A stretch of DNA of 10,593 nucleotides from a virus (lineage: Duplodnaviria > Heunggongvirae > Uroviricota > Caudoviricetes). Positions 1-3,000 of the stretch are shown one piece after another (positions within the stretch are counted from its first letter, which is position 1; every line of letters starts with the position of its first letter). The DNA is taken from the IMG/VR virus record IMGVR_UViG_2698536408_000006; one strand, given 5' to 3'. The position numbers are program-made.

Positions 1-3000
1 CTCAGTGATTTCTGCTCGGCGATGCGCTGTATGCCGGTATGGAACGGACAGATGCTGACGTTCGTGCAGGACCGACCGTCGGATAAGGTGTGGACCTATA
101 ACCGCAGTAATGTGGTGATGCCGGACGATGGCGCGCCGTTCCGCTACAGCTTCAGCGCCCTGAAGGACCGCCATAATGCCGTTGAGGTGAACTGGATTGA
201 CCCAGATAACGGCTGGGAGACGGCGACAGAGCTTGTGGAGGATACGCAGGCCATTGTCCGTTACGGTCGTAACGTCACGAAGATGGATGCCTTTGGCTGT
301 ACCAGCCGGGGGCAGGCACACCGAGCCGGGCTGTGGCTGATTAAAACGGAACTGCTGGAAACGCAGACCGTGGACTTCAGCGTGGGCGCAGAAGGGCTTC
401 GCCATGTACCGGGTGATGTCATTGAAATCTGCGATGATGATTATGCCGGTATCAGCACCGGTGGTCGCGTACTGGCGGTGAACAGCCAGACCCGGACGCT
501 GACGCTCGACCGTGAAATCACGCTGCCATCCTCCGGCACCACGCTGATAAGCCTGGTTGACGGGCAGGGGAATCCGGTCAGCGTGGAGGTCCAGTCCGTC
601 ACCGACGGCGTGAAGGTGAAAGTGAGCCGGGTTCCTGACGGCGTTGCAGAATACAGCGTGTGGGGGCTGAAGCTGCCGACGCTGCACCAGCGATTGTTCC
701 GCTGCGTGAGTATCCGTGAGAACGACGACGGCACGTATGCCATCACCGCCGTGCAGCATGTGCCGGAAAAAGAGGCCATCGTGGATAACGGGGCACACTT
801 TGACGGTGACCGGCGCGGCACGGTGAATGGTGTCACGCCGCCAGCGGTGCAGCACCTGACTGCCGAAGTCACCGCAGACAGCGGGGAATATCAGGTGCTG
901 GCGCGATGGGACACGCCGAAGGTGGTGAAGGGTGTGAGCTTCCTGCTTCGCCTGACCGTGGCAGCGGACGACGGCAGTGAGCGGCTGGTCAGCACAGCCA
1001 GGACGACGGAAACCACATACCGCTTCAGGCAGCTGGCGCTGGGGAATTACAGTCTGACAGTCCGGGCGGTAAATGCCCGGGGGCAGCAGGGCGATCCGGC
1101 GTCGGTATCGTTCCGGATTGCGGCACCGGCAGCGCCTGTCACTATTGAACTGATACCGGGGTATTTTCAGATAACGGCGGTCCCGAAACTGGCTGTATAT
1201 GACCCGACGGTGCAGTTTGAGTTCTGGTTTTCGGAAAAGCGGATTGCGGATATCAGGCAGGTTGAAACCAGCGCCCGCTATCTTGGCACGGCGCTGTACT
1301 GGATAGCCGCCAGTATCAATATCAGGCCNNNNNNNNNNNNNNNNNNNNNNNNNNNNNNNNNNNNNNNNNNNNNNNNNNNNNNNNNNNNNNNNNNNNGATT
1401 GCGGATATCAGGCAGGTTGAAACCACAGCACGCTATCTTGGCACGGCGCTGTACTGGATAGCCGCCAGTATCAATATCAGGCCGGGCCATGATTATTATT
1501 TTTACGTTCGCAGTGTGAACACCGTTGGCAAATCGGCATTTGTGGAGGCCATCGGTCGGGCGAGCGATGATGCAGAAGGTTATCTGAATTTTTATAAAGG
1601 GTTGATCAATAAAACGCATCTCGGCAAGGAGTTGTGGACGCAGATTGATAACGGTCAGCTTGCGCCGGACCTGACTGAAATCAGGACGTCCATTACGAAT
1701 GTCAGCAATGAAATCACGCAAACCGTCAATAAAAAACTGGAAAATCAGAGTGCTGCAATCCAGCAGATACAGAAAGTTCAGGTTGATACAAATAATAACC
1801 TGAACAGCATGTGGGCTGTGAAGCTGCAACAGATGAAGGACGGACGCCTTTATATTGCGGGTATCGGTGCCGGTATTGAGAATACGCCAGCAGGAATGCA
1901 GAGTCAGGTGCTGCTGGCGGCAGACAGGATTGCGATGATTAATCCTGCGAATGGCAACACAAAGCCGATGTTTGTTGGTCAGGGCGATCAGATATTCATG
2001 AACGACGTGTTCCTGAAATGCCTGACGGCTCCGACCATTACCAGCGGCGGTAATCCTCCGGCATTTTCCCTGACACCTGGCGGACGGCTGACGGCGAAAA
2101 ATGCCGATATCAGCGGTAACGTGAACGCGAACTCCGGGACGCTCAACAACGTCACGATTAATAAGAACTGTCGGGTTCTGGGAAAATTGTCCGCGAACCA
2201 GATTGAAGGCGATCTCGTTAAAACAGTGGGCAAACCTTTCCCACGGGACTCCCGGGCACCGGAGAGGTGGCCATCAGGGACCATTACCGTCAGGGTTTAT
2301 GACGATCAGCCGTTTGATCGGCAAATTGTTATTCCCGCGGTGGCGTTTCGCGGTGCTAAACATGAGCGGAAGAATAACAATATTTATTCGTCATGCCGCC
2401 TGATAGTGAAGAAAAACGGTGCTGAAATTTATAACCGAACGACCCTGGATAATACGCTGATATATACGGGTGTTATTGATATGCCTGCCGGTCACGGTCA
2501 CATGACGCTGGAGTTTTCTGTATCGGCATGGCTGGTAAATGGCTGGTATCCCACAGCAAGTATCAGCGATTTGCTGGTTGTGGTGATGAAGAAAGCCACT
2601 GCAGGCATCACGATTAGCTGAATTTTATAACCCAGATACGGGCACCAGAAATGGTGCCTTTTTTATTGCAGAAAAGCGAGAGGTAATTATGCGTAAAGTT
2701 TGTGCAGCCATTTTGTCCGCAGCCATTTGCCTGGCCGTATCCGGTGCGCCTGCATGGGCGTCTGAACATCAGTCCACGCTGAGCGCCGGGTATCTTCAGA
2801 CCCATACTGATATGCCAGGCAGCGATGACCTGAAGGGCATTAACGTGAAATACCGTTATGAGTTTACGGACACGCTGGGGCTGATTACGTCATTCAGTTA
2901 TGCCAACGCTGAAGATGAGCAAAAAACGCATTACAGCGATACCCGCTGGCATGAGGATTCCGTGCGTAACCGCTGGTTCAGCGTGATGGCGGGGCCGTCT

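Follow-up and report, generated by a model that had tools for sequence, protein, structure and literature searches.

Two lambdoid J alleles with different receptor-binding domains: a probable cassette exchange seen in a draft scaffold

The window analyzed here, i.e., the whole stretch of 10,593 nucleotides in the viral record IMGVR_UViG_2698536408_000006, carries two copies of the J gene of lambda-like phages, located by in-frame translation at 1397-2621 (copy 1, J1) and 3945-5480 (copy 2, J2; its start is approximate). The two copies share a conserved body and end in receptor-binding domains (RBDs) of two distinct types. At the level of sequence, exchange of the RBD by recombination is well supported: among the J proteins compared, RBD types assort independently of the lineage of the J body. 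The placement of the two genes side by side is, with high confidence, a product of scaffolding.

Identity profile and domains of the two J copies

Ahead of the motif GTLNNVT the copies were identical at 226 of 250 amino acids (90%) and at 89.9% of nucleotides, with no gap over 750 nt. From the NVT codons (2148 in copy 1 and 4989 in copy 2) to the stop codon, identity fell to 67 of 154 aligned amino acids (~43%) and ~51% of nucleotide columns, with several indels. The mismatch density of the body differed from that of the C-terminal segment with p = 1e-52 (Fisher test). In a sliding window, identity was 85-100% up to ~2150, 37-63% from ~2150 to 2640, and 100% again from 2657, past the stop codon and a terminator-like hairpin. 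For the full-length J genes of finished genomes we found 94% identity in the body and 42% in the RBD. The initial annotation had reported a switch from near-identity to divergence at the end of the copies; its coordinates and content were correct (90-94% in the body, ~43% over the last 157 and 163 residues), but "nearly identical" overstates the similarity of the bodies. The anchors that it listed within the divergent part (FDRQI.IP, VIDMP.G, TLEF, and KKA..GI.I) were all present in the alignment of both copies.

The divergent segment matched the Pfam family PF12421 (Ig_GpJ_C) almost end to end, with 126.9 bits over profile positions 2-135 of 135 in copy 1 and 90.8 bits over positions 1-134 in copy 2 (cut-off 26.2 bits). 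PF09327 and PF24489 lie ahead of it in both J fragments, and PF24421 was also matched in the window fragments, while the full-length proteins of 1,159 and 1,165 aa carry the whole series FNIII-A_GpJ, Phage-tail_3, Ig_J, Ig_J_second, Phage_Tail_Tip, and Ig_GpJ_C. The position of the gene is of the lambda type: in the gene tables of L003 and L005-L022 it follows the minor tail, L, K, and I genes and precedes lom, stf, and tfa (L-numbers denote comparison loci from finished genomes or sibling drafts, and coordinates given with them refer to those loci).

Comparison with solved structures gave the same picture. The J fragments matched chain 8iyk_J of lambda with E = 4.5e-136 and 1.8e-127, and both aligned to their last residue with the solved lambda J and "A8 gpJ 713" chains (E ~1e-127 to 1e-160). 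AlphaFold2 models averaged a pLDDT of 73.8 and 72.2; their RBD parts were all-beta and mostly scored 80-97. The best Foldseek matches of both models were 9wca and 9wcb (A8 gpJ713 in the closed state and with OmpC of EDL933, respectively) and 8xck and 8xcj (lambda in the closed state and with LamB), with E = 1e-15 to 3e-20; for copy 1 the A8 structures came first, followed by those of lambda. Both C-termini are PF12421 RBDs, and their models have a beta-sandwich as in the solved J RBDs. The earlier assignment of the divergent stretch to the J receptor domain thus agrees with PF12421 in both copies and with the end-to-end alignment to the lambda J-LamB and A8 gpJ-OmpC structures, as it does with the structural prediction of each C-terminal domain, which returned all-beta RBDs closest to the solved lambda and A8 J structures.

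The RBD of J is Ig-like; four bottom loops enter the porin, and binding is signaled through the beta-prism and the helical shaft to the tail, which then opens (PMC11101478). We observed that the greatest differences and the indels between the copies fall between conserved strands. This region is the predicted site of the hairpins of phage phi330 that contact OmpC (PMC12502783).

Probable exchange of the terminal cassette

Seven full-length J proteins were compared, with the J body and the RBD scored separately. The bodies of 2B8, 2G7b, and lambda are 97% identical and carry three RBD types: 2B8 has the copy-2 type (99% identity), 2G7b the copy-1 type (94%), and lambda a type of its own, 41-44% identical to either copy. 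WGPS6 and phi330 form a separate body lineage, their bodies being 85% identical to each other; the RBD of WGPS6 is again of the copy-2 type (97%), and that of phi330 is of the A8 type.

The boundaries of the divergent segment coincided in five independent pairs, the left one lying ~460-480 nt ahead of the last base of the stop codon and the right one 20-35 nt past it. Conservation of 95-100% marks both flanks of this cassette (~100 nt to its left, several hundred nucleotides to its right), also in cases where J otherwise has only 50-80% identity. The proposal that the switch marks a mosaic recombination junction is therefore supported by the same boundaries in five pairs and by an RBD type that is independent of the J body.

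An alternative would be that the C-terminus diverged where it stands, under fast diversifying selection acting on its receptor-binding loops and with no foreign module, since the RBD is a target of host-range selection in which single mutations alter receptor use (PMC11336670), and since the largest differences and the indels sit in loop regions. Nevertheless, we regard it as extremely improbable. It does not account for RBD types that are 94-99% identical on bodies of different lineages, for bodies 97% identical that carry three RBD types, or for boundaries common to five pairs. Moreover, divergence extends to synonymous codons and to the terminator. At residues that are the same in both copies, codon identity was 82% in the body versus 56% in the RBD (p = 3e-5), and the stems of the non-coding terminators differ in sequence between the copies while the hairpin is kept. 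Diverged synonymous codons and terminator stems point to import of an anciently diverged cassette rather than to fast divergence in place.

Each J carries its own version of a ~500-bp cassette made of the Ig-like RBD (PF12421), the stop codon, and the terminator hairpin. On the left the cassette is flanked by the conserved end of the beta-prism, and on the right by a T-run, the lom ribosome-binding site, and the 5' end of lom. Homologous recombination in these conserved flanks could swap the cassette between co-resident or co-infecting lambdoid phages. A search of protein databases also returned graded sub-variants and intra-RBD mosaics that bridge the copy-1 type to the A8 type.

That PF12421 receptor-binding cassettes on lambdoid J are swappable is already known, and it has already been used to retarget lambda particles. 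Beyond annotation, our finding matters little.

Among characterized systems, lambda gpJ (PDB 8iyk, 8xck, 8xcj; PMC11101478) shares with the two J genes the gene position, the series of Pfam domains ending in PF12421, and bodies 91% identical. It differs in the RBD, to which the S. sonnei-type RBDs are 41% identical, and in a helical-shaft segment that is ~28 aa longer in the S. sonnei-type proteins and unalignable to lambda. This segment, which lengthens both J proteins by ~28 aa, is common to both (window ~1640-1800 and 4480-4640; fragment residues ~85-114) and gave no alignment with lambda, 2B8, or 2G7b. Judged by these alignments, it is a second exchangeable module 5' of the RBD.

Closer relatives exist for each RBD separately. 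The RBDs of J from 2G7b, VT1-Sakai, and the PPompW prophages are 92-94% identical to that of copy 1, although the body of 2G7b is lambda-like (97%) and not of the S. sonnei type. The RBDs of 2B8, Evi, cdtI, WGPS6, 2851, and the O157 Stx1a/Stx2c phages are 97-99% identical to that of copy 2, on bodies whose identity ranges from 79% (WGPS6) to 91% (2B8). J of the Salmonella prophage Gifsy-1 resembles the present pair in its mosaic pattern, with a conserved N-terminal ~964 aa and a divergent C-terminal receptor domain; it binds OmpC (PMC12312913). Its RBD belongs to another sequence family, which the same paper sets apart as 18% identical to that of lambda.

Both RBD types belong to the most frequent ones in E. 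coli prophages, and their receptors bear on which hosts long-tailed Stx phages can infect. With presence defined as a match to at least 80% of a 601-nt query, the copy-1-type cassette was detected in 3,349 of 5,426 complete E. coli genomes and the copy-2-type cassette in 2,084 (~38%). Of 243 phage records whose J belongs to this family, 57 had the copy-1 type, including VT1-Sakai, the PPompW prophages, and Stx2a phages, while 74 had the copy-2 type, including cdtI, 2851, WGPS6, and Stx1a/Stx2c phages. An A8-like group, 60-80% identical to copy 1, accounted for 89 records.

Receptor use of the two domain types

The C-terminal domain of J is the textbook host-range determinant of lambdoid phages. 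That the two alleles recognize different receptors, as the initial annotation proposed, is plausible. In the comparison with J proteins of known receptor, copy 1 is nearest to the OmpC-binding phi330/A8 type (64% identity), and copy 2 is only 41-46% identical to any characterized RBD.

The closest characterized relative of the copy-1 RBD is thus the A8 gpJ chimera and phi330 J (PDB 9wca, 9wcb; PMC11338833; PMC12502783), which have the same C-terminus (the end of J in phi330 has almost the same sequence as the A8 RBD) and supply the top Foldseek match. Still, the first hairpin of copy 1, matching E953-S962 of phi330, lacks 6 residues, and there is a change in the other loop predicted to make contact (AWLVNGWYP versus GANNWTP). 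The copy-2 RBD is 46% identical to A8/phi330 and 41% to lambda, and so is about equidistant from the two. Close identity to the LamB-binding type (lambda, phage 21) was found for neither RBD, each being 41% identical to that of lambda.

Published experiments connect several of these domains to OmpC. Phage phi330 forms no plaques on an ompC deletion strain and is rescued by complementation (PMC12502783). Natural gpJ C-termini grafted on lambda J retarget it to OmpC; in particular, A8 and 1A2 gpJ chimeras deliver DNA via OmpC and not LamB, and the ranges of OmpC alleles that they accept differ (PMC11338833). J of phage 21, a LamB binder, gains the use of OmpC through one mutation (PMC11336670). 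A receptor cannot be assigned from percentage identity, given that a single mutation suffices in phage 21 and that OmpC serves as receptor for two different natural RBDs. Our search of the literature on 2B8, 2G7b, ev207, mEp460, phi458, PhiR26_1/ECOR13, and the long-tailed Stx phages found no receptor report for phages with either RBD type, and a 2026 receptor-prediction preprint did not cover RBDs of the lambda type.

Judging from solved structures and published chimeras, the trimeric RBD would dock its bottom loops on an outer-membrane porin, and the RBD type would set the porin or the porin variant. The AlphaFold2 models of the two copies are monomeric and of only moderate confidence (pLDDT 72-74).

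Both RBD types could instead bind the same receptor, most plausibly OmpC, and differ in the allelic variants or loops that they accept, a reading that we hold possible with some doubt. The A8 and 1A2 C-termini behave in this way, both using OmpC and accepting different OmpC variants (PMC11338833); copy 1 has its 64% identity to the OmpC-binding type, both RBD types are abundant in O157-type prophages, and the Foldseek score of copy 2 is slightly better against the A8 structure than against that of lambda. However, at 46% and 41% copy 2 is essentially equidistant from A8 and lambda, and both hairpins predicted to contact OmpC (PMC12502783) differ in length and sequence in both copies. If the receptor is indeed shared, the alleles differ in host range within one receptor class and not in receptor.

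Conversely, the copy-2-type RBD might use an outer-membrane receptor other than LamB, OmpC, or OmpF. Its equal distance from the LamB- and OmpC-binding structures, together with the lack of a published receptor in our search, leads to this suggestion, which we consider unlikely.

Scaffold joins and make-up of the window

The window corresponds in full to record CXDH01000136.1 (10593 bp), part of the draft assembly GCA_001259155.1 (exact-protein look-up; identical to L031). It is very probably a scaffold of three contigs (A, B, and C) from a Shigella sonnei-type genome, in which the tail-fibre ends of two lambda-like prophages were joined. One degraded lambdoid prophage would supply contigs A and B, its J-lom-stf' end, in which an IS21-family element interrupts stf; contig C would come from another lambdoid prophage and hold its J(3' half)-lom'-stf-tfa end. 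The gene order was read from six-frame ORFs and by direct reading (Table 1), and a repeat finder detected the J-lom-stf unit twice, ~2.8-3.0 kb apart. Neither J copy is complete in the window, copy 1 being split by 68 N and copy 2 beginning at codon ~655.

Table 1. Features of the window (window coordinates; contigs and prophages as in the proposed scaffold)
Feature	Position	Strand	Remarks
J of prophage 1 (J1), middle part, codons ~339-781, contig A	1..1328	+	99.0% identical to L005:7468-8795
False scaffold gap, 68 N	1329..1396	.	Flanks overlap 87 nt in finished genomes
J1 body: end of second Ig domain, alpha-helical shaft, beta-prism	1397..2147	+	PF24489, PF09327
J1 predicted RBD, copy-1 type, 157 aa + stop	2148..2621	+	PF12421, 126.9 bits
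Terminator-like hairpin 3' of J1, within divergent cassette	2640..2659	+	Stem sequence unlike that of copy 2
lom of prophage 1, intact, 199 aa	2689..3288	+	PF06316 full length, 428.6 bits
stf (side tail fibre) of prophage 1, N-terminal stub, IS-cut	3352..3663	+	PF08400 positions 1-104/134
IS21-family element, left 244 nt; istA start 3765; end of contig B	3664..3907	+	Matches L028 IS nt 1-244
Single-N join (3908) + 47-nt right palindrome arm	3908..3955	.	Reverse complement of 3861-3907
J of prophage 2 (J2), body from codon ~655	3945..4988	+	Full 1165-aa gene in CP000038.1
J2 predicted RBD, copy-2 type, 163 aa + stop	4989..5480	+	PF12421, 90.8 bits
Terminator-like hairpin 3' of J2	5503..5520	+	
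lom of prophage 2, truncated, 160 aa	5551..6033	+	83-bp deletion between CTGGCG repeats
stf of prophage 2, 1029 aa	6126..9215	+	PF08400, PF03406, PF07484; exact protein match in CP000038.1
tfa (tail fibre assembly gene) of prophage 2	9215..9796	+	PF02413
IS1 copy start, first 48 nt; end of contig C and of record	10546..10593	+	GGTGATGCTGCCAACTTACTGAT

The picture of two J copies at one locus, implicit in the initial annotation, is not supported. The copies belong to the loci of two prophages ~0.66 Mb apart, concatenated by the assembler. Window 3945-9338 is 100% identical to CP000038.1 (L003:7820-13213), which we take to be S. sonnei Ss046; J2 is there an uninterrupted 1,165-aa gene with the usual tail genes upstream. 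Window 1-1328 (99.0%) and 1397-3907 (99.8%) match another locus in several finished genomes of 4.8-4.9 Mb (L005:7468-8795 and 8709-11219), where J is a gene of 1,159 aa. CP019689.1 and JBEAAB010000011.1 each contain both loci, J1 and J2, in the same orientation and separated by ~0.66 and ~0.67 Mb, respectively. That copy 2 might be a read duplicate of copy 1, a possibility raised with the initial annotation, was rejected: ~10% of body positions differ, and each copy has a 99-100% match at its own locus in finished genomes.

The joins themselves bear traces of assembly. The 68-N gap is false, because its flanks (1243-1328 and 1397-1483) overlap by 87 nt in finished genomes. The first 60 nt past this gap carry J2-type variants (differences at 1426, 1427, and 1430), so that contig B opens with a chimeric path from J2 to J1 through a common repeat; base 1 of the window is the start of a 47-nt exact J1/J2 repeat. 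The second join is a perfect palindrome with 47-nt arms (3861-3955) and a single N at its center (3908), as if both contigs entered the same IS21 interior (IS nt 198-244) from the same side. Three sibling drafts of the same project have the same contig order, but their J2 side begins at window-equivalent positions 4000, 4141, or 4288, compared to 3945 here, and the joins always adjoin 1-4 Ns. Since a real junction would have a single coordinate, we take the juxtaposition as scaffolding. In sibling L033 and in all finished genomes J2 is continuous through 3945.

The tandem J-lom-stf arrangement was absent from the 5,426 complete E. coli genomes, where BLAST matches of both copies stack on single J-lom-stf loci of 2.5 kb. 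One longer match (H1) was considered as a tandem and rejected, being an ISEc62 insertion inside one J at a different site (window-equivalent ~4176). The N in the palindrome, the variable coordinate of the junction, and the absence from finished genomes all disagree with a real tandem duplication of J-lom-stf.

Two observations pull in the other direction. Contig C opens with 36 nt of inverted IS21 sequence and passes into J2 through an 11-nt microhomology, CGTCTGACCGT (3945-3955), which is unlikely to be due to chance and for which we found no technical origin; either a chimeric local assembly or, in a subpopulation, a true junction by microhomology could lie behind it. In addition, the order of stf'-IS21 followed by the 3' part of J2 recurs in the sibling drafts, and a real IS21-J2 link in some strains is conceivable. 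A pure de Bruijn account of the contig ends (k ~48-49) agrees with both 47-nt features, the palindrome arm and the repeat at base 1, though not with the longer unbroken exact J1/J2 repeats, and was set aside.

These observations could be read as a real tandem, J1-lom-stf'::IS21-J2'-lom'-stf-tfa, in which an IS21-associated or microhomology-mediated rearrangement fused the tail regions of the two prophages. The recurrence of the contig order in four drafts of one project and the fusion at the start of contig C speak for it, as do the richness of S. sonnei-type genomes in IS elements and the duplication of the J1 locus in CP019689.1. We nonetheless judge it very unlikely: every join has Ns, the coordinate on the J2 side varies (3945, 4000, 4141, 4288), the join is a perfect palindrome and not at an IS end, and J2 is intact in finished genomes and in L033. 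Furthermore, the tandem is confined to 4 assemblies, compared to 1,212 blocks of the assembly collection for the lom protein of prophage 2. Scaffolding of two distant prophages remains the reading that we prefer.

Chimeric or duplicated J-lom-stf joins seem to be systematic in this assembly series. Other drafts of the project (L004 = CXFU01000079.1, 153-5388; L028-L033) show repeated 5' parts of stf and overlapping pieces of J joined by 1-4 Ns, and many "J" proteins in databases are fragments from contig ends. In drafts of polylysogenic Shigella and E. coli, J, lom, and stf are prone to chimeric scaffolds, and apparent tandem tail modules need comparison with finished genomes.

Both prophages are decayed in finished genomes, which makes adsorption tests based on induction unrealistic. 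The J1 locus is without head genes and most tail genes there and has many IS elements. In CP019689.1 (L009/L010, 4.617-4.647 Mb) the unit M-L-K-I-J1-lom-stf' is present twice, 9.4 kb apart, with IS copies between. In CP026802.1 (L027, 3629-7125) J2 is split into ORFs of 721 aa and 374 aa and is thus a pseudogene in at least one strain.

Homology of the prophage 1 stf to intact E. coli loci stops at 3663, where the IS21-family insertion begins. In a sibling scaffold (L028:3512-5641) the element is 2130 bp long; its terminal repeats are TGTCAGCGCC and TGTCAACGCC, and it is 86% identical to an annotated copy of the ISEc62 family. In finished genomes the copy is broken after nt 428 by a ~1.26-kb insert with a transposase gene (HTH_Tnp_1/rve).

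In prophage 2, the deletion of 83 bp in lom is seen against 3160-3248 of the prophage 1 lom. The truncated 160-aa product is indexed in the 1,212 blocks mentioned above, and the truncation looks fixed in the lineage. The tfa gene has ~63 nt (9339-9401) that are missing from CP000038.1, and its product is 150 aa long in two other finished genomes (L015, L021) versus 193 aa here. Wholly within the 3' part of tfa, at 9558-9756 (+), lies a match to the Rfam family IS009 (RF02111) with 218 bits (gathering score 117).

The stretch 9800-10545 that separates tfa from the IS1 copy is AT-rich (GC 28-40%) and has no ORF of at least 60 aa. The 48 nt that follow (10546-10593) are the start of this copy and carry what is presumably an IS1 terminal repeat; IS1 transposase genes come next at the equivalent place in finished genomes. 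Antisense and overlapping ORFs in 1988-2403, inside the J frame, were rejected as unsupported. The center of the prophage 2 stf (6400-7600) has a GC content of 59-63%, a strong AT skew, and low complexity rich in Ala, Ser, and Thr, a composition that gives rise to long but spurious ORFs on either strand, in several frames.

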